From: Thermoanaerobaculia bacterium
GTDB lineage: Bacteria; Acidobacteriota; Thermoanaerobaculia; Gp7-AA8
Reading direction: 5' to 3'
Assembly: GCA_017883265.1 (NCBI GenBank)
Contig: JADGNX010000001.1
Location: 812 to 64,811, forward strand
DNA length: 64,000 nucleotides
The position numbers and the translations under genes were made by a program. Under the pieces are notes generated by a model. The model was not told the origin of the DNA. It was given only the letters and a program-made list of their open reading frames with translations, and ran no database searches. Of the stretch, positions 22,253 through 62,393 are shown piece after piece; the stretch's first letter is position 1; every line of letters starts with the position of its first letter.

Positions 22253-22256
22253 ATCG

Positions 22257-25157: not shown

Positions 25158-25188
25158 CCCCGCTTTCTTTTCAAAAGGTTAGGACAAT

Positions 25189-25323: not shown

Positions 25324-25347
25324 CCGTAGCCACAACGCGAGGGGTCG

Positions 25348-25734: not shown

Positions 25735-25744
25735 CTGGATCGCG

Positions 25745-25954: not shown

Positions 25955-25957
25955 CAA

Positions 25958-27607: not shown

Positions 27608-27628
27608 GCTGGTGATCGAGGTGATTCG

Positions 27629-29859: not shown

Positions 29860-29874
29860 TGTTCCACGTGAAAC

Positions 29875-31866
29875 ATGACGGATAGATACGATGTCGTCGT
29901 GATCGGCGGCGGTCACGCCGGCGCGGAAGCCGCCCGCATCGCCGCCCGTGGCGGGTCCAGCGTTGCTCTGGTGACCATGGCCCGACAGGCCATCGGCCGC
30001 ATGTCGTGCAACCCGGCGATCGGCGGCCTGGCCAAGGGCAATCTGGTCAAAGAGATCGATGCGCTCGGCGGGCTGATGGGCGAAGCCGCGGATCGCTCCG
30101 GCATCCAATTCAAGATTCTCAATCGCTCCAAGGGACCTGCGGTTCAGGGACCTCGAGCGCAGTGTGATCGTGATCTCTATGCCGAAGCGGTTCAGAATCT
30201 TCTGGCATGCGAGGCCAACCTCGCCGTGGTCGAGGGAACGGTCCGTTCGCTCCTGATCGAGGGGTCTCGCGTCCGCGGTGTTCTACTCATTGACGGGCGG
30301 CTCCTGACCAGCTCCGCGTGCGTCGTGACGACCGGTACCTTTCTGCGAGCCCTCATGCATTCGGGCGAAGAACAGAGCCCAGGTGGCCGCTTCGGCGAGC
30401 CTTCGGCCCAGACCCTGTCCGATTCGCTCCGGATGCTCGGCCTCAACCTCGGCCGGCTCAAGACCGGAACCCCGCCTCGCGTCGATCGGAGCTCGGTCGA
30501 TTTCGGCCGGCTCGTTCCGCAGCCCGGCGATGCCTCCCCACGGCCGTTTTCGATTCTCACCGACCGCCTCGAGCTTCCGCAGGTCCTTTGCCACCTCACG
30601 CATACGAGCGAGGCCACGCACCAGCTCATCCGGGCCAACCTTCACAGGGCTCCGATGTACAGCGGACAGATCGCCGCCACCGGTCCGCGTTACTGCCCGT
30701 CGATCGAGGATAAGGTCGTCCGCTTTTCAGACAAGCCGAGGCATCAGGTGTTTGTCGAGCCGGAAGGGCTGAATCACCCGTGGTTGTACATGAATGGGAT
30801 CTCGACATCGCTACCGTCCGATGTCCAGGACGGTGTCGTTCGGTCGTTGCCCGGCTTCGAAGAGGCCGTGATAGCCCGCTACGGATATGCCGTCGAGTAC
30901 GATTTCGTGAATCCGCAACAGCTGGAGCCGACTCTGAAGGTCCGGGGGATCGAAGGCTTGTATCTGGCTGGCCAGATCAACGGTACCTCAGGATATGAAG
31001 AGGCGGCGGCCCAGGGCCTCATCGCCGGGATCAACGCCCTCCTGGCGGTAAGAGGCCGGCAACCGTTCATCCTTCGCCGGGATCAGGCCTATGCCGGCGT
31101 GATGATCGACGACCTCGTGACTCAGGGCACCGAGGAGCCGTATCGCATGTTTACCTCGCGGGCCGAGCACCGGTTACTTCTGGGATGCGATTCGGTCTAC
31201 GAACGTTTGACGCCCCTGATCGAAGAGCTGGGTATCTCGGACATCGAGCGGCTGCGGCGGGCTGCCGGGCGCCGCAGCCGTATGCGAGCAGCTTGCGCTG
31301 CTGCTGAGCAGGCGGTATTGACACCGGAACGGGGCACGACAGAATGGCTCGGTCCTCTGGGAATCGTACTGCGGGAAAAGACGACCGTGGCGCGGCTGGC
31401 GCAACGGATCCCGTTCGAGCTGAAGGATTTCGTGACGCACTGCCGGGAAGCTTCGCGCTGGCCGGAGTTGACCTGGGCGGTCGACGGGCTCTCGGACGAA
31501 GAGCGGGAGGGGGTCGTCAACGAGTTGCGCTACGCGGGTTACCTGGAGCGGCAGCAGCGCGAGGCCGATTCGCTTCAACGGGTCGAGGCAGTCGCGATCC
31601 CCGGCGACATGGCGTACGAGTTGCCAGGCTTGTCCCGTGAATTAGTCGAAAAGCTCAATGCCACGCGGCCTGTCTCCCTCGGACAGGCCAGTCGAATACG
31701 AGGGATGACGCCCGCGGCGTTGTCCCTTCTTCGCATGCATCTGCACCAGAGAGGACGCAGGGCCGATGGAGCAGCAGGAGCGGTTGGAAAGGTTTCGAGA
31801 TCTTCTGCGCGCGTGGGGCCGGAAGGTCAATCTGATCGGTCCGGAAGCGTTCGCTCATCTGGATGA
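29875..31866 (+). CDS. mnmG: tRNA uridine 5-carboxymethylaminomethyl modification enzyme MnmG (GidA)
   Basis: 663 aa with FAD motif VVIGGGHAGAEAA, the conserved SCNPAIGG block and C-terminal LGQASRIRGMTPAALSLL. It ends with a ~38-aa low-complexity tail that overlaps rsmG. Confidence 0.9.
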   Translation: MTDRYDVVVIGGGHAGAEAARIAARGGSSVALVTMARQAIGRMSCNPAIGGLAKGNLVKEIDALGGLMGEAADRSGIQFKILNRSKGPAVQGPRAQCDRDLYAEAVQNLLACEANLAVVEGTVRSLLIEGSRVRGVLLIDGRLLTSSACVVTTGTFLRALMHSGEEQSPGGRFGEPSAQTLSDSLRMLGLNLGRLKTGTPPRVDRSSVDFGRLVPQPGDASPRPFSILTDRLELPQVLCHLTHTSEATHQLIRANLHRAPMYSGQIAATGPRYCPSIEDKVVRFSDKPRHQVFVEPEGLNHPWLYMNGISTSLPSDVQDGVVRSLPGFEEAVIARYGYAVEYDFVNPQQLEPTLKVRGIEGLYLAGQINGTSGYEEAAAQGLIAGINALLAVRGRQPFILRRDQAYAGVMIDDLVTQGTEEPYRMFTSRAEHRLLLGCDSVYERLTPLIEELGISDIERLRRAAGRRSRMRAACAAAEQAVLTPERGTTEWLGPLGIVLREKTTVARLAQRIPFELKDFVTHCREASRWPELTWAVDGLSDEEREGVVNELRYAGYLERQQREADSLQRVEAVAIPGDMAYELPGLSRELVEKLNATRPVSLGQASRIRGMTPAALSLLRMHLHQRGRRADGAAGAVGKVSRSSARVGPEGQSDRSGSVRSSG

Positions 31867-51037: not shown

Positions 51038-52378
51038 GTGAGGATCTTTCGCGGACGTCTCTTCACACCGCATTCCAGTCCGTTCGGAACGGACGATGTC
51101 GCCGCCAGCTTTACCTATCACGAGGATGGGTTTCTGGCTGTGGACGACGACGGCCGTATCGCATCAGCAGGCTCATGGGAGAGGCGATCCGCGCAATCGC
51201 CTGAGGCAGAGGTCACGACTTTCGGGGCGCACGCATTGATGACCCCCGGCTTTGTCGACACGCATCTCCATGCCCCGCAGCTGGAAATGATCGGCTCGTA
51301 TGGCGGGCACCTCCTGGAGTGGTTGAACCGCTACACCTTCCCTACCGAAGCAAAGTTTGCCGATGCCGGGCACGCCGGTATGATCGCCCAGTCCCTTTTC
51401 GACGAACTGCTGCACAACGGGACGCTGACGGCGCTCATCTTCTCGACCATTCACTACGAGGCCACCGACATCTTCTTCCGTGAGGCCGAACGGCGCGGCT
51501 TTCGGGCCATCATCGGAAAGACGATGATGGACCGCAATGCGCCCGCCGCCCTGCTGGAGGGCGCTGTCGAATCGTACGAGGCAAGCCGCGCGCTGCTGGA
51601 GAAGTGGAACGGCCGGGGTCTGCTGCGCTACGCCATCACGCCGCGCTTTGCGCCGACCTCGACCCCGGAGCAGTTGCGACTGGCAGGGAAGCTCAAGCAG
51701 GAGTTTCCCGATGCCTACGTCCATACGCATATCTCCGAGAACCGGTCCGAGGTCGGCTGGGTCTCAGAGCTCTTCCCGGAAAGCAGCAGTTACGCCGGGG
51801 TCTACGATCACTTCGGACTGCTGAGCGACCGCACTGTGCTGGCACACGGCGTTCACTTGAGCGATGCCGAGCTCGACCTGCTCAGCGCTCGAGGCAGCCG
51901 GATCTCCCACTGCCCGAACTCCAATCTCTTTCTGGGAAGCGGTCTCTTTCCCCTGGGGCGTACCGTAGAGCATCATGTCCAGGTCGGTCTCGGAAGCGAC
52001 ATCGGCGCCGGTACCACTCCCTCGATGTTCAACGCCATGGCCGACGCCTACAAGGTCCAGCAGGTTCAGGGGGTGTCGCTTACTCCCTTCCACCTCTGGT
52101 ACCTGGCGACTCTGGGGGGAGCACGCACACTCTCTCTCGATCCGGCTATCGGAAGCCTCGAGAAGGGGAAGGATGCCGATTTTCTCGTCCTCGACCTTCA
52201 TGCGACGCCATTGATCAGCCTGCGAAGCGACCGCGCGTCATCGGTCGAGGATCTGCTCGCCGGCTTGATCTTCATGGGAGATGACCGGGTCGTGGAACGC
52301 GCCTTCATCGGCGGCAGGGAGGTGTCGAGTCGCCGAGCCTCCGAGGCGCCGGCGGCTCGGATGGAAGCAATGTCTTAG
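51038..52378 (+). CDS. guaD: Guanine deaminase (amidohydrolase superfamily)
   Basis: 446 aa with PGFVDTHLHAPQ metal-binding motif, YVHTHISEN and HGVHLSD blocks typical of guanine deaminases. Confidence 0.7.
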   Translation: MRIFRGRLFTPHSSPFGTDDVAASFTYHEDGFLAVDDDGRIASAGSWERRSAQSPEAEVTTFGAHALMTPGFVDTHLHAPQLEMIGSYGGHLLEWLNRYTFPTEAKFADAGHAGMIAQSLFDELLHNGTLTALIFSTIHYEATDIFFREAERRGFRAIIGKTMMDRNAPAALLEGAVESYEASRALLEKWNGRGLLRYAITPRFAPTSTPEQLRLAGKLKQEFPDAYVHTHISENRSEVGWVSELFPESSSYAGVYDHFGLLSDRTVLAHGVHLSDAELDLLSARGSRISHCPNSNLFLGSGLFPLGRTVEHHVQVGLGSDIGAGTTPSMFNAMADAYKVQQVQGVSLTPFHLWYLATLGGARTLSLDPAIGSLEKGKDADFLVLDLHATPLISLRSDRASSVEDLLAGLIFMGDDRVVERAFIGGREVSSRRASEAPAARMEAMS

Positions 52379-52487
52379 GCTGGAGGCCTCGCTGTGACCC
52401 CAAACCACCTATTTTTGGAGTATTCGGTGCGCTAGAGAGCGTTCTGGCGTGCCGTTTGCCGTATCGATGGCGATCCAGGAGGTAGCA

Positions 52488-53804
52488 ATGAAGCAGAAAT
52501 CATCAAAGTCGTGGCTGGTGGCCGTCGCATTGTTTGTCGGCAGCGGATCGATGCTGTCCACTTTTTCTCAAGATCGTACCGTTTGGCGTACAGCGAACGA
52601 CATCCGCAACAATGTTCGAGGCACGATCGTCGGCACGATCGCCGAGATCGATTCCTCGCGGCATCGGTTTCAGGTGCTCGCTGATAGCGATCGGACTGCC
52701 AGGATCAACGTCGTGACGGATTCGATTTCGACTCAGTATTCGGGCTACGCCGGGGTTGTCGGAAGCCAGCCCGAGATCCTCAGCGGATCGAGCGGCTTCG
52801 ACATGGTCAGGACGGGCGACCGGGTGGAAGTCCGTGGAGTGGGCTTTTCGGACGGTAGCGTCTCCGCGGATCAGATCCTCCTGCTGGGGCGATCTTCAAC
52901 GGGCGTTAGCGCGTCGAGCGCCCCAAGCACCAACGCCGCCGATGCGCAGGGTCGCTTTGAAGGAGTCGTCCGCCAGGTGAATCTGGCCGAAAATCGTCTG
53001 GTCATCGAAACCGATCGACGACAGATGTTCACCATAAGCGGCAGCTCTCAGACGCCGGTTAACTTCCGCGGGCAGGTCTATGCGATCGCCAACATCGAGG
53101 TGGGCGATCGCGTTCGAGTCGATCCCTATTCGGCTGCGACTTCCGGTGGGGAGATCCAGGCACGGTCGATCGACGTGCTCTCCAGCGTGTCGGACGGAAC
53201 ACCGGCCGGGGCGATGGATCGGACGGTGGCATCCATCACCGGCCGCGTCACTCGAATCGACCAGCGCGCAGAAGCGATCTGGGTCGACACGGGGCGCTCG
53301 ACCGAGGTCCGCGTCGATACGCATAACGTCAGTGACGACTCCGGACGCCGCATCCGGTCTGCTGATTTTCAAGTGGGCGATCGAGTCACGATCTCCGGCA
53401 CCTACGACCGCAATGACAACTTCCGAGCGAGCTCGATCCGCTTCGGCGATTCGAGCGGCGGCAGTCAGGGCTCTTATCCGGACGCCACCAGCGGCACCCT
53501 TGGCGGAACACCGTCATCGTCCACGCGCACGTCCGCGACAGTTACTGCTGCCGATTACGTCTCCACGGTCATCTATGCCAAGGTTCAGGAGACCCTCGGC
53601 AGCGCCCCGACGCTCCTTCTCCAGGATACGGCGGCGACCCCCAAACGTACGCTCCGCGTGCTCGTTTCCGAAGACTTCGCCGTGCGCACGAAGACCGGCA
53701 ACTATGTCATGGCCGATTCGCTGAAGGTGGGCGATCAGGTCGTTGTGAAGGCTTACCGCGATCCGAGCGGCAACTACATTGCACAGACCATTCGGATGCG
53801 CTGA
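52488..53804 (+). CDS. Secreted protein built from ~5 internal repeats of a ~70-80 aa beta-rich module (DUF5666-like)
   Basis: Signal peptide MKQKSSKSWLVAVALFVGSGSMLS. Repeated (V/I)GDRV(E/R)V(R/D)G..., VGDRVRVDP, VGDRVTISG and VGDQVVVKA segments. Confidence 0.5.
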   Translation: MKQKSSKSWLVAVALFVGSGSMLSTFSQDRTVWRTANDIRNNVRGTIVGTIAEIDSSRHRFQVLADSDRTARINVVTDSISTQYSGYAGVVGSQPEILSGSSGFDMVRTGDRVEVRGVGFSDGSVSADQILLLGRSSTGVSASSAPSTNAADAQGRFEGVVRQVNLAENRLVIETDRRQMFTISGSSQTPVNFRGQVYAIANIEVGDRVRVDPYSAATSGGEIQARSIDVLSSVSDGTPAGAMDRTVASITGRVTRIDQRAEAIWVDTGRSTEVRVDTHNVSDDSGRRIRSADFQVGDRVTISGTYDRNDNFRASSIRFGDSSGGSQGSYPDATSGTLGGTPSSSTRTSATVTAADYVSTVIYAKVQETLGSAPTLLLQDTAATPKRTLRVLVSEDFAVRTKTGNYVMADSLKVGDQVVVKAYRDPSGNYIAQTIRMR

Positions 53805-53826
53805 GGCGCATTCATCGCGTTTCAAC

Positions 53827-53854
53827 AAAAGGGCGGTCGAGAGACCGCCCTTTT
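53827..53854. terminator. Bidirectional rho-independent terminator between two convergent genes
   Basis: AAAA-GGGCGGTC-GAGA-GACCGCCC-TTTT: a perfect 8-bp GC stem with a 4-nt loop, flanked by an A-tract and a T-tract. It sits 23 nt after the secreted-protein gene stop and 11 nt after the SOD gene stop. Confidence 0.75.
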
Positions 53855-53864
53855 GACTTGCAGG

Positions 53865-54566
53865 CTACCGTGACGTGGCCAGTGAAGACTGTCTCTTGAG
53901 CCGCGCGTCGATGACATTCCAGTCCACATGGGCCAGAAAGGCCTCGATGTATTTCGGGCGATCGGCTGGTTTGTAGTCCAGCAGATAAGCGTGCTCCCAT
54001 ACGTCCATGATGAGAATCGGAGCGAAACCGGCGACGTTGCCTGTTTCATGGAGAGTGATCCAGTGATTCAACAGGCGGCCTGTGGTTGGATCCTCCGAGC
54101 AGACGGCCCAGCCGACCCCCCGCATCTTTCCGATTCCGACGAAGTCGGCTCGCCAGATGTCGAGGCTGCCGAAGCTTTCTTCCGCCGCGCGTTTGAATGA
54201 TGAATCGCGCGCCGGCACCCCTCCCGCCTTCTTCGTCATGTTACCGAAGTAGTATTCGTGCAGGACCATGCCGTTGTACTCGAATCCGAGACGTCGGGTG
54301 AGCTCCGAATACGCGGGCATTTCCTCCTGATCGACCTTTCCGTCTGCGAGAATCGCGGAGATCTTCTCGGTCAGCTCGTTCGTCGCCTTGACATAACCTT
54401 CATAAAGCTTGAAATGCATCTCCAGAGTCTTGTCCGAGATGCCCGTCAGACCGCTGAGATCAAAAGCCTTCGGCTTGTAAACCTTGGAATTTGCCATCGT
54501 CGATGCCATTGTCGTTACCATGTCAAACACCTTCCTTTCATCCCATATCAGATGCATTTCCCGCAC
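53865..54566 (-). CDS. sodA: Fe/Mn-family superoxide dismutase
   Basis: C-terminal DVWEHAYLLDYKPADRPKYIEAF, with N-terminal ligand His and Tyr spacing (MHFKLYEGYV). The true start is probably an internal Met (around 54497-54509). The track coordinates are kept. Confidence 0.8.
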   Translation of the reverse strand: MREMHLIWDERKVFDMVTTMASTMANSKVYKPKAFDLSGLTGISDKTLEMHFKLYEGYVKATNELTEKISAILADGKVDQEEMPAYSELTRRLGFEYNGMVLHEYYFGNMTKKAGGVPARDSSFKRAAEESFGSLDIWRADFVGIGKMRGVGWAVCSEDPTTGRLLNHWITLHETGNVAGFAPILIMDVWEHAYLLDYKPADRPKYIEAFLAHVDWNVIDARLKRQSSLATSR

Positions 54567-54616
54567 CCGCTATGGAAGGCCAGCCGGCGGAAGCTGCTGA
54601 CTCCGCTTTGTTCGCG

Positions 54617-55951
54617 TCAGTCCCGAACACAGCGGAACGTCGCGTAGAGGTATGGATATATCGGTCGAAACCAATTTCGAAAACTGCGCCGGACGAGAAG
54701 GTCATCCGTGACGGGCGATGCTCCCTTCAATACGAAGTGCTGCCCATCAAAAAAATCAGTCGAGTAGACCGGATAAGAAGCCATCGGCGAGAAGCCCTCG
54801 AAGGGGGCAAACGGCGTCGACGTCCACTCCCAACCGTTGCCTACGAGATCCTCGACGCCCCATGCGCTGGCCCCGGCAGGAAACGAGCCGACCGCGACAG
54901 GATCAGCGGCGCGGAAGCCGAAATTGCCATGATGAGCGGCTGGGGCCTCGTCGCCCCACGGATGGAGCCGTTCAGCCCCCTGCGGCGTGCCGAAGGCCGC
55001 TCGATGGTATTCGGCCTCGGTGGGAACCCTCATGCCGGCCCAGCGCGCGTAAGCGGAAGCTTCGGCATGCGTGACATATACCGGACCATGCGGAGGGAGC
55101 GGATAAGCCTCGAACAGACCTCGCCACATCCAGCTCTCTCCTGAACGCGTCCAGAAGTGCGGATGACTCACTCCCTCTTTCTCGATCCACCGCCGGGCCT
55201 CGGCGGTCCAGAGAGACCGATCCGTGTAGCCTCCCGCCCCGACAAAGTCGAGATACTCATTGTTTGTCACATTGAATTTCTGAATGCTGAACGGAGAAAC
55301 GTGCTGCACGTTCGTCGGAAACTCGTTGTCCCAGAAGAAGTCGTCGGTCGTGTAGTCGGTGCCGAGCGTTGCCGTACCGCCCGGAATATCGATCAATTCC
55401 TGCACGACGACGCGGTCGGTCGACGTATGGCGTTGGGGGCTGTTCGGCCGCTTCCTGCCATACGACAGCTCGTGCAGGATGTAGTGCAGCGTCTCCTGAT
55501 GCATGAACTCGTGCTCGATCACCGCCAATGCCGCCTGCCCGCGACGCAGCATCGGGTTGTCATCGTTCTCGAGCTCGGATTCGAGGAGCGTTTTCTCGAT
55601 GATCTCGTCCGCCGCCCGGCCGTATGCGAGCACTTCCGACCGGGAGGGCCAGCCAGAGGCCTTTCCCTTTGCCGCCGCCTGTTCATCCTCGGGATCAATG
55701 CCTCTGGCGAAAAGAACTTCCAGCCGCTCATCGATCCCCGGCCGGCCGAGCGCTCCCTTGATCAGCGTGTTGATGATGAACGCCGGAAGGTGCCCCTCGT
55801 AAAAGACAAATGGATGGCGGAGTGGAATCGGCCGTTCGTAGTACGCGTCTTCGCTCGGGATGGCAAAAATGGAGTGAGTGCGGCGACGAGCGGATCGATA
55901 ACGTCCGACAAGCGCACTACGGTCGGACAGGGAGCTGGCGTAGGTCTTCAC
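54617..55951 (-). CDS. EgtB-like enzyme: N-terminal DinB_2 domain fused to a C-terminal FGE-sulfatase (formylglycine-generating-enzyme-like) domain
   Basis: 444 aa. Its length and two-domain layout match EgtB-type sulfoxide synthases. It has the DinB-type His-rich region (IEHEFMHQETLHYILHE), and GNGWEWT and RSFRNW blocks in the FGE half. Confidence 0.6.
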   Translation of the reverse strand: MKTYASSLSDRSALVGRYRSARRRTHSIFAIPSEDAYYERPIPLRHPFVFYEGHLPAFIINTLIKGALGRPGIDERLEVLFARGIDPEDEQAAAKGKASGWPSRSEVLAYGRAADEIIEKTLLESELENDDNPMLRRGQAALAVIEHEFMHQETLHYILHELSYGRKRPNSPQRHTSTDRVVVQELIDIPGGTATLGTDYTTDDFFWDNEFPTNVQHVSPFSIQKFNVTNNEYLDFVGAGGYTDRSLWTAEARRWIEKEGVSHPHFWTRSGESWMWRGLFEAYPLPPHGPVYVTHAEASAYARWAGMRVPTEAEYHRAAFGTPQGAERLHPWGDEAPAAHHGNFGFRAADPVAVGSFPAGASAWGVEDLVGNGWEWTSTPFAPFEGFSPMASYPVYSTDFFDGQHFVLKGASPVTDDLLVRRSFRNWFRPIYPYLYATFRCVRD

Positions 55952-55991
55952 GGCTATATTTCTAACACGGAAGCGCTGCGCTGCGGGCCGA

Positions 55992-56750
55992 TCAACCGGT
56001 GCGCGCCGGCACCTCCGCGGGCACTTCGAATAGCCGGAACGCCGGCTTGTCGGGATAGAGGCGCGCCAGGAGGGGCATGGCCACGTTGAACACCGGGATG
56101 TTGCTCCTGGTCCGCCCTTCTGGCGCCCCGTGGTGCGCGTGGCCGTGGAATACTGCGTTGACGCGGTACCGCTCGAGCGGCTCTTCCAGACGGCTGGAGC
56201 CGAGGAAGGCGATCATTTCGGGAGGCTCGCCGACTACGGTGGCCTGAATCGGTGCGTAGTGAAGGACGGCGATTTTCTGCGGGGTGCGGAGCCGTGCCAG
56301 AGCCGCCTCGAGTTTCAGGCTCTCCTCCACGGCCTCGTGCACGAAGTCCTTGATGAGCTTTTCTCCCCAGGCGCCGAGGGCACGCCGGCCGAACCCACCG
56401 GCGAAACCTTTAACCCCCGCAAAACCGACGCCGTGCAACTCGTGCGAATCTCCGTCCAGCATGATCACGCCGGCCCCGGCCAGAATCTTCGTTACCTCGT
56501 CCTGCTGGCCCGACTCGAAATCATGGTTTCCGAGCACGGCGATGACCGGTACGCGGACCGAGGTCGTCAAATCCTTCGCCAGGATCTTTGCCTCTTCCAC
56601 CGTGCCATAGTCGGTGAGGTCACCACAGAGGAGGAGGACGTCCGCGTCCTCATTCGCGCTCGCGAAGAGTGGCTGTAGTGACCCGGCTGAATTCTTCTTG
56701 ATGTGAATATCGCCAACAGCAGCGATACGCAGCGTTGCTCGAGTGGCCAT
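55992..56750 (-). CDS. Calcineurin-like metallophosphoesterase
   Basis: 252 aa with GDIH, GDLTDYG, GNHD and GHAHH motifs in canonical order. Confidence 0.75.
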   Translation of the reverse strand: MATRATLRIAAVGDIHIKKNSAGSLQPLFASANEDADVLLLCGDLTDYGTVEEAKILAKDLTTSVRVPVIAVLGNHDFESGQQDEVTKILAGAGVIMLDGDSHELHGVGFAGVKGFAGGFGRRALGAWGEKLIKDFVHEAVEESLKLEAALARLRTPQKIAVLHYAPIQATVVGEPPEMIAFLGSSRLEEPLERYRVNAVFHGHAHHGAPEGRTRSNIPVFNVAMPLLARLYPDKPAFRLFEVPAEVPARTG

Positions 56751-56753
56751 GAA

Positions 56754-57557
56754 TCATTTGTCCTTGTCGATCGCTGCAGTCCAGTGCGCGATCTCCGCAG
56801 AGGTCATGTTTCCTCGCGGCTGCAGACGAGCGTCCTCGTAACCCCACAGGCCGATGTCGGTAAGATACTGCTGGCGCGAGATAATCGGACCGAAACAGAC
56901 TCGTTCGCTGCCTTCCGGCGCAGCCGTTTCCTGCTGCAGCCTCCCGGTCAACTCCTGGACTACCCACCTTGGAACTTTGGATCGATGGGAGGGATAGATA
57001 AACCCGAAGAGGATGATGTGTGCAAACAGAGGTCTCCACAGATGGCCGAAACGGTCGAGGAGCCGGCGCCAGTCCATCTGATCGCCGCGAGCGTGGATGA
57101 CGTGCGCGACATCCGCGCCATCGTAGCGCTCGCGCTCCATGATCAGGCCCTTCGACCAGATCATCTCCTCGGCCGGAATGAGACGGACCGGCAGGTCGAG
57201 CACGGTGCCTTCCGTCGACTTCTCAAACCAGATATTGTCAACGCGCGCCACGCCGTTTCCAGCACTGAAGATGAGGTCGATGAAGTCCTCGCCGTGATAC
57301 GCCTTGCCCAGCCAGTGGGGAAAGGTAAGGTCCGTTTGATAGCCGGCGTCCTGCAGCGTCCGGGAGATCCGCGGATAGTCCTCGCGTTTGACAAAGATGT
57401 CGAAGTCCTTGGTGTGACGCTCGATGCCGGTGTATCTGGCAAAGGCGTACGCTCCGCCGACCAGGTAAGGCAGCTTCTGCTCGTTCATGATCGACAGCGC
57501 GCGCCGATAAAATGTCCGGCTCTTTTCGTCGATCCCCTGGTCCATCGCGGTAGGCAT
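56754..57557 (-). CDS. Pol-beta-superfamily nucleotidyltransferase-domain protein
   Basis: ATG 57557 is preceded by GAGGAAGAG. The LVGGAYAFARYTGIERHTKDFDIFV segment matches the hG[GS]x9-13DhD NTase signature. The ~180-aa C-terminal domain has unknown function. Confidence 0.5.
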   Translation of the reverse strand: MPTAMDQGIDEKSRTFYRRALSIMNEQKLPYLVGGAYAFARYTGIERHTKDFDIFVKREDYPRISRTLQDAGYQTDLTFPHWLGKAYHGEDFIDLIFSAGNGVARVDNIWFEKSTEGTVLDLPVRLIPAEEMIWSKGLIMERERYDGADVAHVIHARGDQMDWRRLLDRFGHLWRPLFAHIILFGFIYPSHRSKVPRWVVQELTGRLQQETAAPEGSERVCFGPIISRQQYLTDIGLWGYEDARLQPRGNMTSAEIAHWTAAIDKDK

Positions 57558-57625
57558 TGGATTCTCTTCCTCAACCCGAGGTCGTTCCGGATAAGTGCAC
57601 CTTCCGGACCACTTGCGAGGAGTGG

Positions 57626-58450
57626 TCAGGCTTCCTTGATTCCCTCGGCCCACGACATCGCAAACCAGAAGGCCGCGTCATCCCGACTCGACCACGCAAT
57701 GAGGTTTCGTAGAACGACATCGTAGTAATCGGCGTCGAACAGCTTGTGAAGGACCACGGTCTCCCTTGCCCCGTCCAGGATGCCGTGAAGGTTTTCCACG
57801 AGATCGGCAAAGTTGTCGCTACCGGCGCAGCCTCCGAAAAAAATCCAGTCATTGCGTCGGGCCCTTGCTCCTGCTTCGACCAGCAAGGAGGTCAGGCGTC
57901 GCCCGATGAATGGATCATTTCCGATGCGCTCATAGGACCGCATGTACGCTCTCCAGAGATCGGCCAGCCCCGGCGGCTCGGGCCACAAACGCAGAACGTC
58001 GTGGTCGTCGTCGGCCAGGATGATCCGGCCACCGGGCTTCACGGCTCCCACCATGGCCTGCACCACAGACAGAGGGTCAGAAAGATGTTCGAGGAGAAAA
58101 CGGGCGTGCGCGACATCGAACGACCCATCCTCCGCGTCGGTGAGGGGAGGATCGGCTGCGTCGCCGTGGCGGAAAAGGACCAGAGATTCTTCGTTGTCGG
58201 CACGAGCCAGCTCGATGGCCCTCGCGAGCTGCTCCTCACTCCGTTCGATGCCGACCACGCGACCGGGGGCGGCCTCGCGCGCCATCTCACGGGTGAACTG
58301 ACCGAGGCCACAGCCGAAATCGACGACGCTGTCTCCGGGCTGGAGGCTCAAACGGGCGCGCGAGGCGGGGTTCAGAATCCGGTTCATCACTCCGAGGCGG
58401 CGCTGTTCCACCGGAGATGTGCCATGAATGTAAGTCGATGGAGACTGCAT
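57626..58450 (-). CDS. Class I SAM-dependent methyltransferase
   Basis: ATG 58450 gives MQSPSTYIHG. Motif I VVDFGCGLG and post-I acidic residue. The start ATG overlaps the upstream stop as TGATG. Confidence 0.7.
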   Translation of the reverse strand: MQSPSTYIHGTSPVEQRRLGVMNRILNPASRARLSLQPGDSVVDFGCGLGQFTREMAREAAPGRVVGIERSEEQLARAIELARADNEESLVLFRHGDAADPPLTDAEDGSFDVAHARFLLEHLSDPLSVVQAMVGAVKPGGRIILADDDHDVLRLWPEPPGLADLWRAYMRSYERIGNDPFIGRRLTSLLVEAGARARRNDWIFFGGCAGSDNFADLVENLHGILDGARETVVLHKLFDADYYDVVLRNLIAWSSRDDAAFWFAMSWAEGIKEA

Positions 58451-59391
58451 CACTCCGCCTCGACTGCCTTCACAGAATAACCGGCGTCGGCCCAGCCCTC
58501 CAGCCCTCCTGCGAGGGGGCGAACCAGCGTGAATCCCTGATCGATCAGCATGCGAGCCACACGGGCCGCTGAGGCTTCGTTTGGTCACGTGCAGTACAGG
58601 ATGATCTCCTGGGATGGCTTCATCCCCGCCATGCGCTCGTTGATCTCAGAGAGGCTCATGACCATGGCTCCGGGGATCATTCGTGGATCGCTCTTCCGCG
58701 CCGAGCGCGTCCTGACGTCGAGAACCACGACCGCCTCGCCAGCGTCCATCATTCGCTTGAGCTCTGCCGGCTGGATGCGGGCCATACGCAGGTGGCGATA
58801 GAACCGGATTCGCTGCCACCACTTCAGGAAAATGAAGAGCGCAAGCAGCGAGACAGCCACCACGCCGCCCCAGACGCCCAGATTCTGCAGATGCCGCAAC
58901 ACTTCGTGAAGCGCGTGCCGGAAGATGAAGCCGACGGCGATCCCGCTACCGGCCCAGAGAAGCGCTCCAGCCGCATCGTAGGCCATGAAGAGGAGTGCCG
59001 ATGCCCCGATGGCTCCGGCCAGAGGAGGTCCGACGGTCGAATATCCGGGGATGAACTTCGCCGCGATCAGCGAGGGAAGTCCCCAGCGCTCGAAAAAAGT
59101 CTCGGTTTCGCGAACGCAGGAATCGGGGGAAAGAGAAATCCTGCAGAGCGTGCGCAGGATCCTCCAGCCGTAGCGACGGCCGAGGAGAAACCAGACGATA
59201 TCAGCGATCAGAGAGGCGAGCACCGCAGCCATCAGGATCGATGAAGTCGAGAGGCGGCCTTCGCGAATGAGCGAGCCGGCGACGAGCAGAACGGGAAGTG
59301 CCGGAATCGGCGCTCCTAGCTGCTCCAGAAGGACGTTCAGAAACACGAGCGGTGTGCCATGGCGCACGACGAGGGTGACCAGCTGCTCCAT
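58450..59391 (-). CDS. DedA(VTT)-family membrane domain fused to a C-terminal rhodanese domain, with an in-frame TGA (candidate selenocysteine) at the rhodanese catalytic-Cys position
   Basis: The track ORF 58585..59391 ends ...EIILYCT-TGA(58587..58585). The same frame continues PNEASAARVARMLIDQGFTLVRPLAGGLEGWADAGYSVKAVEAE to TGA 58452..58450, which overlaps the methyltransferase ATG. The extension is the canonical rhodanese C-terminus (GG..W). Ungapped alignment to GlpE puts the TGA on the catalytic Cys. Confidence 0.55.
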
Positions 59392-59435
59392 ACTCGACAG
59401 TGTGCCACAGCGCCGCGGAGCGCTGGAGACCTTGC

Positions 59436-60395
59436 TTACCAGACCTCGTCAATCCGGATCGCAGAGCTCCGGGTGGTGAGCCGGATGACCGGGCTGGCTT
59501 TCCCGATCCGCAGATGGCGAGGTGGATGGTCTGGCGGCAGCTCCATGCAACGGGCCAGATGGCACTCGATCTGCCCGCCCGCGGCAGACTCAGCTTCGAT
59601 GCGCCCGCTGAAATCATCTCGTACATGCAGGCGAACATCCCCACTCTCGCTCCGAGCGTCGAGCAGACGGCCCCATTTCTGGCCCGGCAGGCTGATGGCG
59701 ATGTCGCCGGTGACGGTCGCGGCCGAGACGTCCCCGGTGGTCGACTCGATGGCGATGCCGCCACTCTCGCTGCGGGCGTCGAGCGAGCCGCCGGCATGAT
59801 CGATGGTAATGCCGCCGCCCACGGAATGAACGTGCTGCTCGCCGACGCAGGAGGCCAGGGAGATCTGGCCGTTCGTGGTTTGTGCCTCGATGCGGCCATT
59901 CATGTTACGGACGGCGATGCCGCCGTTTGCAGCCGCCAGCTCGAGGGCAATACCACGCGGAACCTCGAGAATCATATGGACCCACCAGGCCCGCTCGGAA
60001 GTGAGGGCAGGCCCGCTCGACCTGATCCGGCCGTCGAGGGCGCTGGTCACCGAAACCGATCCCAGGACATTCCGCGCCTCCAGAATGGTGGCGGCCGCCG
60101 CAAACTTACAGACCGTCAGGCGCGCGTCCGAGCGACTCCATCCCCGAATGGAGATGCCGCCCGCCTCGCTGGCGGTTACCGAGAGCCTGCCCAATGACGA
60201 GATGGGAAGGAGCCGATGCTCTTCGCCATGGACTTCCGCTCCCAGGGTCGTGAAGCTCGTCGTGTGAAAGTGCTCGCACGATTCGACGTCGCTATGCTCC
60301 TGTGTCGTGGCGATGAAGGAGCGCGTCGTTGGTCGCGCCGCAACCGCGGTGATCAGCAGTACAGGAATCAGAGCTGCCGCAATGCGCATGACCAT
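59436..60395 (-). CDS. Secreted DUF4097-like (putative adhesin / beta-helix repeat) protein
   Basis: Signal peptide MVMRIAAALIPVLLITAVAA, then repeated G-x-I-x-(V/I)-x-x-x-x-G(D/S)(I/V) turns such as GGIAIESTTGDV and GDIAISLPG. Confidence 0.5.
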   Translation of the reverse strand: MVMRIAAALIPVLLITAVAARPTTRSFIATTQEHSDVESCEHFHTTSFTTLGAEVHGEEHRLLPISSLGRLSVTASEAGGISIRGWSRSDARLTVCKFAAAATILEARNVLGSVSVTSALDGRIRSSGPALTSERAWWVHMILEVPRGIALELAAANGGIAVRNMNGRIEAQTTNGQISLASCVGEQHVHSVGGGITIDHAGGSLDARSESGGIAIESTTGDVSAATVTGDIAISLPGQKWGRLLDARSESGDVRLHVRDDFSGRIEAESAAGGQIECHLARCMELPPDHPPRHLRIGKASPVIRLTTRSSAIRIDEVW

Positions 60396-60453
60396 CGTGG
60401 TTCTTCGCGTCTCACTCTGATACGCGACACGGGCTGCCAGGTTTCTTTCGGAC

Positions 60454-61464
60454 CTATCCGCCGATATGCGACATCTCGACTTTCTTCAGACGGAGAGTCG
60501 CCTCCGAGCGGATCTCCGAGTAGCGGTCACCGCGATCAGCCCAGGTCGAGGCGATCAAAGCCGCGACCGTCTCATCGTCGGCGCCGGCACGGAGGAGTCC
60601 TCTCACGTCGCGACCAGAGCCCGCGAAAAGGCAAGTATAGAGCTCGCCGGCGGCTGAGAGCCGTGCCCGCGTGCAACTGCCGCAGAACGGCTGGGTGACC
60701 GAAGTGATGATGCCGATCTCCCCGGCGCCGTCTTCGTACGTCCATCTCCCGGCAACCTCGCCAAAATAAGTCGGCTCTGCGGTTCGCAACGGCCATTCAG
60801 CCGCGATCCTTTCGGCGATCTCCCGGCCGGCTACGACGTCTTCCATACGCCAGGCGTTGGTGTTCCCCACATCCATGTACTCAATGAATCGCACGATATG
60901 TCCCGACCAGCGGAAGCGAGCCGCCATCGGAACGACGCTGGCATCGTTCACGCCGCGCTTGACCACCATATCGATTTTCAGTGGGGTGAGACCGGCCGCA
61001 GCCGCCGCGTCGATGGCGTCGAGAACCCGGGTCACTGGAAAGCTGACGTCGTTCATCGAGCGGAAGACCGCATCGTCGAGAGAATCGAGGCTGATGGTGA
61101 TACGCCGGAGGCCCGCCGCCCTGAGTGCCCTGGCCCGCTCCGCGGTCAGCAGCGAACCGTTCGTGGTCAGCGCGAGATCCTCGAGGCCATCGATCGACCC
61201 GAGCATTGCGATGAGGTGTTCGATGTTGCGCCGGAGCAGAGGCTCACCGCCGGTGAGGCGAATCTTCTTCACTCCCTGCCGCACGAAGATTGCCGCAAGC
61301 CGGGCGATCTCTTCAAAGGAAAGAAGCTCACTCCGTTCGAGAAACGCAAACTCACGGCCGAAAATCTCCTTCGGCATGCAATACGGACAGCGGAAGTTGC
61401 ACCGGTCGGTGACCGAGATCCGCAGATCGCGCAGAGGTCTACGCAGTTTGTCGAAGAGAGGCAT
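60454..61464 (-). CDS. moaA: GTP 3',8-cyclase MoaA (radical SAM, molybdenum cofactor biosynthesis)
   Basis: 336 aa with the radical-SAM cluster CNFRCPYC near the N-terminus and a C-terminal second cluster region (CGSCTRARLSAAGELYTC). Confidence 0.85.
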   Translation of the reverse strand: MPLFDKLRRPLRDLRISVTDRCNFRCPYCMPKEIFGREFAFLERSELLSFEEIARLAAIFVRQGVKKIRLTGGEPLLRRNIEHLIAMLGSIDGLEDLALTTNGSLLTAERARALRAAGLRRITISLDSLDDAVFRSMNDVSFPVTRVLDAIDAAAAAGLTPLKIDMVVKRGVNDASVVPMAARFRWSGHIVRFIEYMDVGNTNAWRMEDVVAGREIAERIAAEWPLRTAEPTYFGEVAGRWTYEDGAGEIGIITSVTQPFCGSCTRARLSAAGELYTCLFAGSGRDVRGLLRAGADDETVAALIASTWADRGDRYSEIRSEATLRLKKVEMSHIGG

Positions 61465-61697
61465 TCGCGTTGAAAAGCCAGGCCTCCGTTGGCGAATTCC
61501 TCGCCACGCAGGTCTTGGGCCGGACTGCCGTCGAGGAGTCAGCCCCCGCCGGATGGACGATGGGAGAGCATGAACCCGGGCGAGAAATGTTGCAAGGAAT
61601 CAATGCTCGCTCACTCCCGGTGTTCGGACCCCAGGGGTCGCACGAATGCGCAGGTCACCCGGATAGGACAGTCCTGTCTCGGCCGTGCCGACCGGTG

Positions 61698-62393
61698 CTA
61701 GCGGAGCGCGGTCATGAAGCGGTCGAAGCGCGGCTTGAAATGATTGGCTCGATCGAAGGAGAACGCCACGGCTGTGGCTTTGCCGACGATGGCTTCCCCT
61801 TTGATGAATCCGATGTAGCGGCTGTCGTTGCTGTCGTCGCGGTTATCTCCCATGACGAAGTATTCGCCTGCCGGCACCTTCCGCGCTTCGAACGAGCGGA
61901 GTGCGGGGACGTTTTCGGTGATCATCAGCATGTGGTGGGTGCCGCTCACCGCCTCCTCGACCTGCCATGCGCGCTGGCCCGCAAAATCGGACAGGCCGGA
62001 AACGTCGGATGGGGACGTCCAGTGCGCCGGCTCGCCGTTGATGAAGAGCTGTTCATCCCTCATGGCGACGGTGTCGCCCGGCAATCCGATGACCCGCTTT
62101 ACGAGACGCATGCCGTCAGCCGGAGAATAGAAGACGATCACGTCGCCGCGCTGCGGTTCGCTCCATCGTGCGATCCGGACCCTGGAGAACGGCACCTTGA
62201 GGTCGTACGCCAGTTTGTTCACGATCACGCGGTCGCCCTCCAGGATCGTTGGCTTCATCGACCCCGTGGGCACGTCATTCCAATCTGCCAGTGCCGATCT
62301 CATCGAACTGACGATGAGCACCATGAGGAGGATTCCCCGGCCGCTGGCCCAGATCTGAAGAGCGCGTTCTCTGAAGTTCATCGGTTCTCTCAT
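61698..62393 (-). CDS. lepB: Signal peptidase I
   Basis: 231 aa with an N-terminal TM, the catalytic Ser region GSMKPTL and GDNRDDSNDSRYIGF (box E). Confidence 0.85.
   Translation of the reverse strand: MREPMNFRERALQIWASGRGILLMVLIVSSMRSALADWNDVPTGSMKPTILEGDRVIVNKLAYDLKVPFSRVRIARWSEPQRGDVIVFYSPADGMRLVKRVIGLPGDTVAMRDEQLFINGEPAHWTSPSDVSGLSDFAGQRAWQVEEAVSGTHHMLMITENVPALRSFEARKVPAGEYFVMGDNRDDSNDSRYIGFIKGEAIVGKATAVAFSFDRANHFKPRFDRFMTALR

Follow-up and report, generated by a model that had tools for sequence, protein, structure and literature searches.

The six minus-strand genes described here form a real gene cluster that is conserved across soil Acidobacteriota. In our preferred reading, to which we give a probability of about 0.55, they would belong to a stress-defence operon of three joined sub-modules that carries an ordinary ergothioneine-type EgtB. 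This reading is built on sequence comparison between the window (the whole 64-kb stretch that was analysed) and related loci. Sub-module 1 would consist of a DUF4097 protein, a DedA-fused membrane selenocysteine (Sec) rhodanese of the CxU type and a coupled SAM methyltransferase (MTase). Sub-module 2 would be a nucleotidyltransferase (NTase) and a metallophosphodiesterase (MPE), always together, whose most likely task is to put a nucleotidyl phosphodiester on an acceptor and take it off again (or to make and degrade one). Sub-module 3 would combine an EgtB-IV-type non-haem-iron sulfoxide synthase with an Fe/Mn superoxide dismutase (SOD). Like its egtD-linked orthologs, EgtB would most likely use O2 to join cysteine to C2 of hercynine, a step toward ergothioneine, and the hercynine would come from an egtD gene elsewhere in the genome. 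All three sub-modules are probably read as one transcript that starts at an ECF-type promoter 5' of the DUF4097 gene and stops at the terminator closing the string.

Gene organization and transcription signals

Domains were assigned with Pfam and NCBIfam profiles and the features are listed in Table 1. After start correction the six ORFs span 59391..53865, with intergenic gaps of -1, 68, 3, 40 and 95 nt. The operon-like string and the domain calls of the earlier note were upheld, as were the TGATG overlap, in which the MTase ATG overlaps the stop of the DedA-rhodanese gene, and the 3-nt spacing between the MPE and NTase genes. Its gap range of -1 to about 70 nt was right as to co-orientation and tight packing and wrong as to the upper limit, the largest gap being 95 nt.

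Table 1. Features of the gene string and its flanks (positions in the window)
Feature	Position	Strand	Length	Remarks
ECF-type promoter-like motif	60421..60445	minus		GAAAC-N16-CGTA; function inferred
DUF4097 ('toastrack') gene	59436..60395	minus	319 aa	Pfam PF13349, 37.8 bits
DedA/VTT + rhodanese gene	59391..58450	minus	313 aa	Pfam VTT_dom + Rhodanese
In-frame UGA (Sec, codon 269)	58585..58587	minus		in DedA-rhodanese gene
SECIS-like hairpin	58545..58572	minus		16-43 nt 3' of UGA
Class-I SAM MTase	58450..57626	minus	274 aa	Pfam Methyltransf_23/11/31/25
NTase	57557..56754	minus	267 aa	pol-beta superfamily, PF14907-like
MPE	56750..55992	minus	252 aa	calcineurin-like metallophosphoesterase
DinB_2 + FGE-sulfatase enzyme (EgtB-IV type)	55951..54617	minus	444 aa	Pfam
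Fe/Mn SOD	54521..53865	minus	218 aa	Pfam Sod_Fe_C, 73.8 bits
Bidirectional intrinsic terminator	53826..53855	both		common to string and convergent DUF5666 gene
DUF5666 gene, convergent	52449..53804	plus

The terminator consists of a perfect 13-bp stem closed by a 4-nt loop, with a folding energy of -25.6 kcal/mol (z = -5.2); none of 200 shuffled sequences was equally stable. It is the longest perfect hairpin of the window, in agreement with its proposed rank as the strongest terminator there. T-runs on both strands let it act for the convergent plus-strand gene as well. Within the string, only one match looks like a terminator, a weak 5-bp stem in the EgtB coding sequence, over conserved FF codons. 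No sigma-70-like promoter was found by consensus scan of 52000..62000. The tight spacing, the single strong terminator and the lack of internal terminators or sigma-70-like promoters argue for one transcription unit. Internal promoters could be hidden in the 68- and 95-nt gaps; the EgtB-SOD spacer holds a 16-nt motif common to the window and the close relative L001.

The DUF4097 gene, which encodes a protein with a hydrophobic N-terminus, is probably the first gene of the operon; 44 nt separate its end from the DedA-rhodanese gene. An ortholog is found at the same position in L001, L002, L013, L019, L027, L046 and L086. The ECF-like motif GAAAC-N16-CGTA lies 26 nt 5' of its start codon and is the single match on both strands of the window (0.16 expected). 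Motifs of the same type were found just 5' of the DUF4097 ortholog in L001, L002 (variant CGTC), L013, L019 and L027. The pattern used for the relatives, G[AT]AAC-N15-17-CGT[AC], has a background density of 0.039 per kb; the promoter motif was defined post hoc, on sequences already seen. The motif is a candidate start of the transcription unit, and its location suggests a seven-gene stress operon. A divergent gene pair for an ECF sigma factor and a ZAS-motif anti-sigma factor adjoins the cluster in at least nine relatives; the window's own lineage is without it.

Conservation and modularity of the cluster

The order [DUF4097] DedA-rhodanese [MTase] NTase MPE EgtB SOD was found in 13 genome loci, in L082, L084 and L086, and in dozens of metagenome loci with 53-90% protein identity. 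This recurrence is far beyond chance; the genes are thus syntenic in relatives, against the main objection that the earlier note had raised to its own reading. Spacers of 0-20 nt or overlaps between cluster genes are seen in many relatives; in some, EgtB is separated from MPE or from SOD by additional genes.

The cluster is also modular. Among 80 metagenome loci scanned with NTase as the anchor, and counting only loci with room, MPE adjoins NTase in 63 of 64, EgtB follows in 35 of 51 and SOD comes after EgtB in 25 of 39. The NTase-MPE pair is thus the tightest unit. It occurs in three different arrangements and as one natural fusion protein; EgtB and SOD join it in one large clade, and in more distant lineages it is also found without EgtB or SOD. 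The Sec rhodanese and the MTase are optional members: DedA-rhodanese is missing from about two thirds of the NTase-anchored loci, and an MTase is present in 6/13 genome loci and 10/43 metagenome loci. MTases of two different families occur across cluster versions. In L003 the Sec-rhodanese gene is located directly 5' of EgtB.

Sec-containing DedA-rhodanese and its coupled methyltransferase

The protein combines a DedA/VTT membrane domain (Pfam VTT_dom, score 33.7 against a threshold of 33.9) with a C-terminal rhodanese domain (Pfam Rhodanese). Reading through the in-frame TGA yields a complete rhodanese C-terminus with the active-site loop LYC-T-U-PNEAS, in which C267 aligns with the canonical catalytic Cys. 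The NCBIfam profile NF041203, 'rhodanese_LYCAU (seleno)protein', matched at 81.9 bits (cut-off 115). Public gene calls split the gene at the UGA into ORFs of 263-269 aa and 31-35 aa. The TGA occupies the identical codon in all 30 orthologous loci, and protein conservation continues 3' of it. The SECIS-like hairpin has an apical stem SGCC/GGCN and a CGUGU loop. Its 4-bp apical stem is paired in 98% of cells, with one pair covarying CG/GC/GU, and the lower stem is weaker (86% paired). Four-fold degenerate third positions of codons +6 to +11 are frozen, with a major base frequency of 0.83-1.0 compared to 0.32-0.79 elsewhere. A CxU rhodanese-like selenoprotein (form 3) is listed as a prokaryotic selenoprotein family (PMC13188914). 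Judged from the invariant TGA, the hairpin with its frozen synonymous sites and this known rhodanese type, the TGA very probably encodes Sec, as first suggested for this membrane-anchored rhodanese. A selB gene located some 5 kb from the cluster of L001 adds to this evidence.

The MTase is coupled translationally to the selenoprotein gene through the TGATG. Its nearest solved structures are phosphoethanolamine N-methyltransferases and 3mgg, and every NCBIfam match was far below cut-off. Structures or models of EgtD, OvsM and the OvoA C-terminal domain gave no match above threshold, which bears out the earlier assignment as a generic class-I MTase of non-EgtD type.

EgtB-type enzyme and SOD

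NCBIfam scores of the EgtB-like enzyme were 263 (ovoA_Nterm), 249 (EgtB) and 227 bits (SenA), all below the cut-offs. Its best solved relative is EgtB-IV (8vih, 210 bits); OvsA and SenA structures scored only 100-141 bits. The residues of the EgtB-IV composite motif RxYH--DxHxHYxNWFx, as defined by Kayrouz et al. (bioRxiv 10.1101/2024.04.10.588772), are present as R45, Y51, H54, D86, H147, H151, Y393, N426, W427 and F428. The SenA/OvsA motif (NEH..HR; Y/M, N/Q, F/A) is absent from the enzyme. An OvoA type was rejected, the motif not being (Y/F)AF.

The ortholog lies directly 5' of egtD in 66 of 81 genome loci, all from Acidobacteriota. In a comparison of 16 operon-type with these 66 egtD-linked sequences, all 13 mapped active-site positions were identical. 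Only three discriminating columns set the two groups apart overall, and operon-type EgtBs form one clade of their own. A search for egtD in the window, and in the 8-10 kb around each of the 90-odd operon-type loci, gave none. The cluster is also free of sen-type neighbors (selD-like and glycosyltransferase-like genes). Because of the EgtB-IV motif, the egtD-linked orthologs and the identical active sites, the uncharacterised thio/seleno chemistry proposed for this protein is unsupported. It resembles a normal ergothioneine synthase; its function may have shifted through changes at sites other than those mapped.

SOD is closest to the Aquifex Fe-SOD 1coj (119 bits) among solved structures. Its four metal ligands are intact (His in LEMHF, His in VLHEYY, Asp and His in DVWEH).

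Alternative explanations

One alternative is a single pathway, encoded by the whole cluster, that makes a thio- or seleno-histidine-type metabolite not yet described. Its EgtB homolog would then create a C-S or C-Se bond on some molecule that is not hercynine, the Sec rhodanese would deliver the chalcogen, and MTase, NTase and MPE would activate or tailor the product. The lack of egtD near any operon-type locus, the monophyly of the operon-type EgtBs, the L003 arrangement, the NCBIfam scores below the EgtB, OvoA and SenA cut-offs and the two MTase families are in keeping with it. However, every mapped position for iron, hercynine (N-W-F), the thiol and the catalytic Tyr is identical in the egtD-linked orthologs, the motif is of neither OvoA nor SenA/OvsA type, and a selD/senB-like gene is lacking. 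Because the MTase (missing in over half of the loci) and the Sec rhodanese are so often absent and NTase-MPE occurs without EgtB, a single six-enzyme tailoring pathway, the reading of the earlier note, is unlikely. A narrower proposal is that the Sec rhodanese and MTase handle selenium or another chalcogen (uptake, perselenide carrier, methylation) and share only a stress regulator with their antioxidant neighbors. DedA proteins have been associated with uptake of selenite or resistance to it, and a rhodanese can carry perselenide. The fusion of the CxU rhodanese to a membrane DedA, its translational coupling to the MTase and the nearby selB gene of L001 fit such a role. The MTase core resembles ArsM/UbiE-type enzymes, but only generically, with no specific similarity to known Se, As or Te methyltransferases (scores far below cut-offs), and the role of the rhodanese in DedA fusions has been called unclear (Todor et al., 2023; PMC10127716). 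This proposal is doubtful, and the complete metabolite pathway somewhat more so.

It is still less probable that the genes are unrelated, separately transcribed neighbors kept by inheritance in one lineage. Each sub-module is found without the others, spacers of 40-95 nt occur in the window and some relatives carry inserted genes, as this would predict. Yet dozens of loci with differing flanks keep the order and orientation although EgtB identity is down to 53-60%, many relatives have much shorter spacers or overlaps, and the sole strong terminator stands at the end of the string. Chance embedding of NTase-MPE as a toxin-antitoxin or anti-phage module is highly improbable. The best 120 homologs are 63-91% (NTase) and 74-92% (MPE) identical, a very strong conservation, and their vertical distribution in a housekeeping-like operon is not the pattern of mobile toxin-antitoxin or defence genes. 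The NTase had no PADLOC match, and the small-molecule NTases ANT(2'') and LnuA match it nearly as well.

Comparison with known systems

The rhodanese domain shares with rhodanese-like selenoprotein form 3 (NF041203) the LYC-x-U loop, in which Sec follows the catalytic Cys by two residues. That family is a 126-position profile, whereas here a DedA/VTT membrane protein carries the domain as its C-terminus. The PF09335 + PF00581 architecture is that of the DedA (COG0586)-rhodanese fusions of Todor et al. (2023; PMC10127716), in which no Sec form was described.

The NTase shares fold and catalytic motifs with the MenT/ANT(2'')/Lnu group of small pol-beta-fold NTases, as does the MPE, in which every metal-binding motif is present, with class-III-type metallophosphodiesterases (MPPED2, Rv0805, Lmo2642). 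Neither protein shows significant sequence similarity to the solved members of these groups. Unlike those, the two form an obligate, highly conserved pair that is sometimes fused.

The sen (SenA/SenB/SenC) and ovs (OvsA/OvsM/SenB/SenC) clusters likewise combine an enzyme of the EgtB family with a stand-alone MTase, in a redox-metabolite setting tied to selenium biology, but in the present cluster selenium belongs to a protein residue and not evidently to a metabolite. Closer are the egtB-egtD pairs of Vicinamibacterales, Thermoanaerobaculia and other Acidobacteriota, whose EgtB is orthologous (54-58% identity). There egtD directly follows egtB, while the window has SOD downstream and NTase-MPE upstream. 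The enzyme has the DinB + FGE-sulfatase architecture and composite active-site motif of EgtB-IV (8VIG, 8VIH), with an R..Y..H/D signature of the OvoA branch plus the hercynine-type N-W-F. It differs from EgtB-IV in being a distant sequence relative without egtD nearby in its lineage, and in the fixed location of its gene between those of the MPE and SOD.

Gene organization of the cluster

Six minus-strand ORFs lie between 59391 and 53865 in the window. Their Pfam and NCBIfam domains bear out six co-oriented genes with the products previously named: a DedA/VTT-rhodanese protein with selenocysteine (Sec), a SAM methyltransferase (MTase), a nucleotidyltransferase (NTase), a metallophosphoesterase (MPE), an EgtB-like enzyme and superoxide dismutase (SOD). 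Start codons were set by comparing relatives, and the coordinates were slightly corrected. The intergenic gaps are, in order, -1 (TGATG), 68, 3, 40, and 95 nt; the range of -1 to about 70 nt given in the earlier note holds for the first four, and the largest gap is 95 nt. The terminator hairpin at the end of the string folds at -25.6 kcal/mol (z = -5.2), and no perfect hairpin in the window is longer, in agreement with its description as the strongest terminator of the window. With T-runs on both strands, it is bidirectional and also closes the convergent DUF5666 gene, the protein of which keeps 79% identity in L001, a close syntenic relative. The terminator scan missed this hairpin, apparently because the A/T-extended stem uses up the T-run; the scan found no internal intrinsic terminator in the gene string. 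A consensus promoter scan detected no sigma-70-like promoter in 52-62 kb. The region 15790..31866 of the window carries a chromosomal origin-region gene set, and the operon is located ~30 kb from dnaA.

Features of the gene string and its surroundings in the window, and of related loci (L001, L082, L084, L086)
Locus	Feature	Position	Strand	Remark
Window	ECF-type promoter-like motif GAAAC-N16-CGTA	60445..60421	-	26 nt 5' of DUF4097 ATG
Window	DUF4097 gene	60395..59436	-	Ends 44 nt 5' of DedA-rhodanese start
Window	DedA/VTT+rhodanese	59391..58450	-	Pfam, NCBIfam domains
Window	Class-I SAM MTase	58450..57626	-	Pfam, NCBIfam domains
Window	PF14907-type NTase	57557..56754	-	Pfam, NCBIfam domains
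Window	Calcineurin-like MPE	56750..55992	-	Pfam, NCBIfam domains
Window	DinB_2 + FGE-sulfatase enzyme (EgtB-like)	55951..54617	-	Pfam, NCBIfam domains
Window	Fe/Mn SOD	54521..53865	-	Pfam, NCBIfam domains
Window	Hairpin terminator	53826..53855	Both	13-bp perfect stem, 4-nt loop; closes gene string
Window	DUF5666 neighbour, convergent	52449..53804	+	451 aa, Ser/Thr-rich repeats, signal-peptide-like N-terminus
Window	gyrA	15790..18381	-	Origin-region set
Window	gyrB	18573..20960	-	Origin-region set
Window	recF-like	21146..22252	-	Origin-region set
Window	dnaN	22257..23381	-	Origin-region set
Window	dnaA	23626..25020	-	Origin-region set
Window	yidC	25958..27607	+	Origin-region set; jag, mnmE, mnmG also plus strand
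L001	Split DedA-rhodanese gene	6466..7410
L082	Split DedA-rhodanese gene	7005..7928
L084	Split DedA-rhodanese gene	6186..7121
L084	Divergent ECF sigma + ZAS anti-sigma + HEAT/TPR protein	4750..6122
L082	Divergent ECF sigma + ZAS anti-sigma + HEAT/TPR protein	5391..6741
L086	Divergent ECF sigma + ZAS anti-sigma + HEAT/TPR protein	4585..5936

Identity of the EgtB-like enzyme

HMM searches for EgtB, SenA, OvoA and EgtD, proposed in the earlier note, gave scores below cut-off or no match. In NCBIfam the EgtB-like enzyme scored 262.6 bits against the OvoA N-terminal model (TIGR04344, cut-off 400), 249.3 against EgtB (TIGR03440, cut-off 360) and 226.7 against SenA (NF041186, cut-off 420). The closest solved structure is "sulfoxide synthase EgtB-IV" (8vih, 210 bits), followed by mycobacterial EgtB (178), OvoA (175), OvsA (141), SenA (100), and type II EgtB (90 bits). 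A 17-position composite motif has been reported to classify this family (Kayrouz et al., 2024; bioRxiv 10.1101/2024.04.10.588772): RxYH--DxHxHYxNWFx in EgtB-IV and RxYH--DxHxHYF(Y/F)AFx in OvoA, while EgtB-I ends with NWDR and SenA and OvsA begin with xNEH--HR. In pairwise alignments R45, Y51, H54, D86, H147, H151, Y393, N426, W427, and F428 of the window enzyme match the same residues in 8vih and 8vig; the mapped set also includes Y396. The final triplet is N-W-F as in EgtB-IV, whereas OvoA (8khq) has Y-A-F and MthEgtB and EgtB-I have N-W-D. By the published motif, with the 17 positions mapped from pairwise alignments and not from the authors' own alignment, the window enzyme classifies as an EgtB-IV. 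EgtB-IV uses hercynine and cysteine and sulfurises C2 (bioRxiv 10.1101/2024.04.10.588772).

Two other assignments were considered and rejected. OvoA would carry (Y/F)-A-F in place of N-W-F and a fused C-terminal N-methyltransferase; the window protein stops after the FGE domain, and the separate MTase scored 25.5 bits against ovoA_Cterm (cut-off 170). SenA and OvsA are expected to have xNEH--HRH where the window enzyme has R..Y..H and D. No selD-like or senB-like neighbours were found in the window or related loci. A tblastn search with an acidobacterial EgtD query found no EgtD in the 64-kb window or in any locus where EgtB has a window-like context (operon-type). Neither an egtD nor a sen-type context is therefore present, as had been noticed from the sequence.

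The other proteins of the cluster

The MTase matched generic class-I families alone in Pfam and NCBIfam, and its nearest structures are phosphoethanolamine N-methyltransferases and 3mgg. Assignment as EgtD (Methyltransf_33) was rejected, there being no family match and no EgtD structure among the PDB matches; no EgtD, OvsM or OvoA-C-terminal relationship was detectable. A generic class-I fold that is not of the EgtD type had been predicted. Among solved structures SOD is nearest to Aquifex Fe-SOD (1coj, 119 bits), and its four metal ligands (His, His, Asp, His) are conserved; its C-terminal Pfam domain scored 73.8 bits and the N-terminal domain 24.6, just under the cut-off of 27.

The NTase shows the features of the pol-beta superfamily (PF14907-like), namely hG[GS] and DxD motifs and the NTase fold. 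Its GG...DFD motif is invariant, which identifies it as a small transferase of the MenT/ANT/Lnu type. Small molecules, RNA ends and proteins are all conceivable acceptors. A literature search for PF14907 returned nothing relevant. In a PDB sequence search the MPE had no match and the best NTase match was at E = 0.76. All MPE metal-binding motifs (DxH / GD / GNH / H / GHxH) are present and invariant. Its predicted model (pLDDT 83.4) matches the nucleotide phosphodiesterases MPPED2 (19.4), TT1561, Lmo2642, and Rv0805. Of all the cluster proteins it shows the highest conservation (74-92% identity among the best 120 homologues).

Gene context in relatives

An EgtB-anchored scan with one genome per species returned 80 loci (52-61% identity), nearly all labelled Acidobacteriota (Vicinamibacterales, Thermoanaerobaculia). 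No identical copy of the window EgtB sequence was present in the contig index. An EgtD homologue (320-340 aa) is found directly 3' of EgtB on the same strand in 66 of 81 loci (a total that counts L001). The window-like context occurs in 12 loci (L001, L002, L003, L013, L019, L027, L037, L046, L057, L062, L070, and L073), and each lacks EgtD within 10 kb. Neighbour-joining places the operon-type enzymes in a single clade that branches from among the egtD-linked ones. Only three alignment columns (31, 32, and 170) separate 16 operon-type from 66 egtD-linked sequences, and 13 of 13 mapped composite positions are identical in all of them. The simplest reading is the same enzyme and the same reaction, with the gene relocated once. 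The new C-S or C-Se chemistry suggested in the earlier note finds no support here, given the EgtB-IV motif and an active site identical to that of egtD-linked orthologues. Retention of the hercynine-binding triplet across a clade ~55% identity deep argues that hercynine would still be available, in which case egtD is probably located elsewhere in the genome. At 2907..4115 (+), 50 kb away from the operon, the window encodes a protein whose class-V aminotransferase fold is joined to a kynureninase C-terminal domain. EgtE, the C-S lyase of ergothioneine synthesis, is of the same PLP fold class.

More than 7,800 NTase homologues were detectable in a word-indexed collection, the best 120 being 63-91% identical. 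Three long contigs among these 120 (L082, L084, and L086) have the same arrangement. On the opposite strand they carry ECF sigma, an anti-sigma of 257-260 aa and a HEAT/TPR protein; the cluster strand has (DUF4097-like), the split VTT gene, (MTase), NTase, MPE, the FGE-sulfatase enzyme and SOD. Neighbourhood conservation was thus confirmed, the gene order recurring in relatives. A metagenome-contig scan added 80 NTase loci, in which counts refer to loci with enough room. MPE adjoins NTase in 63/64 and EgtB follows in 35/51. Found beside NTase are SOD (25/39), DedA-rhodanese (13/43), MTase (10/43), ECF sigma (8/33), DUF4097 (8/35), and EgtD (0/80). The in-frame stop at the Sec codon is present in 18/18.

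NTase homologues of 60% identity or less retain MPE (NTase then MPE, MPE then NTase, or divergent) and have neither EgtB nor SOD. Their other neighbours vary (RidA-like, LigD-polymerase-like, and SRPBCC-like, by eye) with no common theme. Among 1.84 billion cluster representatives (clusters at 50% identity), searched exhaustively, 2,099 relatives reach E<=1e-3 and 309 reach E<=1e-30. One of these relatives, P0387, is a single protein of 510 aa that is 55% identical to the window MPE (248 aa) in its N-terminal half and 44% identical to the NTase in its C-terminal half. This apparent fusion supports functional coupling of NTase and MPE, although overlapping genes merged in gene calling could also account for it.

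It was concluded that the cluster is modular, since NTase-MPE is kept without EgtB and SOD and the other members are present in part of the loci. NTase-MPE is an obligate pair, which EgtB-SOD joined in a single large clade of Acidobacteriota; Sec-rhodanese and MTase are optional, though often present. Additional genes within the cluster were seen at L113 ~9640..10164, L119 2877..3404, L117 11034..12255, and L122 10985..12273 (all related loci). By eye, the MPE-EgtB interval contains a PadR-like winged-helix regulator and the EgtB-SOD interval small, secreted, Cys-rich proteins; these inserts are uninformative.

The probable DedA-rhodanese selenoprotein

The DedA-rhodanese ORF is halted by a TGA at 58587..58585 (-), directly after LYCT. 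Read-through of this TGA gives PNEASAARVARMLIDQGFTLVRPLAGGLEGWADAGY, a complete rhodanese C-terminus, and a second TGA overlapping the MTase ATG ends the frame. By alignment to solved rhodaneses the canonical catalytic Cys is C267, and Sec two residues after it would form a CxU loop. The CxU rhodanese form is listed as a prokaryotic selenoprotein family in a 2026 review (PMC13188914). The best NCBIfam match is NF041203, "rhodanese_LYCAU, rhodanese-related (seleno)protein" (81.9 bits, below the cut-off of 115); this model describes a stand-alone domain, whereas the window rhodanese is fused to DedA.

We recovered 30 orthologous loci in all (50-83% identity over the rhodanese part). TGA is found at the Sec codon in 30/30, and coding conservation continues beyond it (PNEASAARVAR...GG..W). 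A hairpin lies 16-43 nt 3' of the UGA, with a 4-bp apical stem paired in 98% of cells and a nearly invariant CGUGU loop. One apical-stem pair covaries (CG 24, GU 2, GC 1); this SECIS-like hairpin shows modest covariation and a weak lower stem. Over codons +6..+11 the four-fold degenerate third positions are fixed or nearly so (major base 0.83-1.0 vs 0.32-0.79 elsewhere), and codon -1 is ACG in 29/29 sequences. The evidence for SECIS is comparative, as the region 3' of the UGA, folded as a single sequence, was not more stable than its shuffled versions (z = -0.03). Together, the TGA, the conserved hairpin and the frozen synonymous sites make a strong comparative case for the selenocysteine proposed for this membrane-anchored rhodanese.

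None of the Sec machinery genes (selA, selB, selC, and selD) is found in the window, the sole tRNA of which is Asn. In L001 (79-91% protein identity, full synteny) selB is located ~5 kb beyond the cluster; by synteny it would lie just outside the end of the window. Public gene callers break the DedA-rhodanese gene at the UGA, calling a VTT_dom protein of 263-269 aa and an orphan ORF of 31-35 aa, so the selenoprotein is systematically mis-annotated. DedA (COG0586)-rhodanese fusions have been mentioned, unexplained, in the literature (PMC10127716), and our literature search found no account of a Sec form. In L003 (678..3036), from a Thermoanaerobaculia MAG, the DedA-rhodanese(Sec) gene is directly 5' of EgtB, and MTase, NTase and MPE do not intervene. 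Here the selenoprotein and EgtB are neighbours in a second, independent case.

Putative regulation of the cluster

A DUF4097 orthologue is found at the same position in seven relatives. The GAAAC-N16-CGTA motif 5' of the window gene is the sole match on either strand of the whole window (0.16 expected). The pattern G[AT]AAC-N15-17-CGT[AC] occurs just 5' of DUF4097 in L001, L002 (CGTC), L013, L019, and L027, with a background of 0.039 per kb in egtD-type loci; the motif was defined post hoc, after the sequences had been seen. In at least nine relatives an ECF sigma gene (66-86% identity among them) is divergent from the cluster, accompanied by a membrane anti-sigma with an N-terminal HxxxCxxC zinc-anti-sigma (ZAS) motif. 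Besides L082, L084, and L086, the relatives with the ECF sigma, ZAS anti-sigma and HEAT/TPR set include L013, L019, L027, L046, and L073. This set is absent locally in the window and L001. From the DUF4097 position, the promoter-like motif and the divergent ECF/anti-sigma genes in relatives, we propose a seven-gene unit from ~60445 to 53826 under putative ECF-type control. A conserved ABC-transporter gene set lies downstream of the cluster in several relatives, and GAAAC-N16/17-CGTA is also found just 5' of this set (L037 8443 and L003 6760 (+)), which hints at a shared regulon.

The 95-nt EgtB-SOD spacer at 54522..54616 (-) folds at -38.6 kcal/mol (z = -3.15), a fold in which GGAAGG, the ribosome-binding site of SOD, would be paired. 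A conserved RNA element was rejected, as the L001 spacer (11333..11434) has an unremarkable fold (z = -0.7) and the spacers of other relatives are 0-20 nt. The 16-mer GGGUGCGGGAAAUGCA is common to the window and L001 spacers and could be a regulator site. An Rfam search of the whole window at gathering thresholds found tRNA-Asn alone and no riboswitch.

Discussion

We favour, with a probability of roughly 0.55, a stress-defence operon in which ergothioneine-type thiol synthesis by EgtB-IV would be coupled to superoxide removal by SOD, with two accessory sub-modules. Most plausibly, NTase-MPE would write and erase, or make and degrade, a nucleotidyl phosphodiester. The earlier note read all the genes as a single pathway for an uncharacterised thio/seleno-metabolite. 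The consistent absence of egtD nearby fits that proposal, but the EgtB active site does not differ from that of egtD-linked orthologues, MTase and rhodanese are optional, and the NTase-MPE pair lives independently; we regard it as distinctly unlikely. It is also unlikely that the selenoprotein and the MTase act as a separate pair that handles selenium or another chalcogen. That the genes are unrelated neighbours seems improbable in view of a gene order that recurs in relatives.

A toxin-antitoxin or defence role for NTase-MPE is highly improbable. A MenT/AbiEii toxin-antitoxin system was rejected, the NTase partner being a conserved phosphoesterase, with both proteins highly conserved and inside a conserved operon. 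PADLOC returned weak or generic matches only and none for the NTase. The conservation of the MPE and apparent vertical inheritance in the operon argue against such a role. A bolder proposal is that the NTase-MPE-EgtB-SOD core is a dedicated egtD-independent pathway of Acidobacteriota, with optional Sec-rhodanese and MTase, making or recycling a nucleotide-activated or otherwise modified thiohistidine. In that pathway NTase-MPE would add a nucleotidyl group to the thiol, to its precursor, or to the EgtB or SOD proteins, and take it off again. We give this proposal little credence; if true, it would be a new low-molecular-weight-thiol or redox-regulatory system.

The cluster is a real, widespread and unannotated module in an understudied phylum, without support for new C-S or C-Se chemistry. 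Its EgtB active site points to ordinary EgtB chemistry, which corrects the more exciting reading. The cluster often adjoins an ECF sigma/ZAS anti-sigma pair and offers a testable oxidative-stress regulon in a poorly studied phylum. It provides a genetic context for a widespread, very conserved NTase-MPE pair (the 309 clusters) and brings out a DedA-fused CxU rhodanese that public gene callers truncate. Every component belongs to a known family, and both the Sec form of rhodanese and the fusion of DedA to rhodanese have been recorded before. Literature searches on the gene combination did not find the arrangement described. Apparently new, in the literature searched, are the fixing of egtB, with no egtD, between SOD and the obligate NTase-MPE pair, the DedA-fused Sec rhodanese, and the ECF/ZAS neighbours. 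Ergothioneine genes are normally spotted by the egtB-egtD pair, whereas here a large clade of abundant soil bacteria fixes egtB without egtD.
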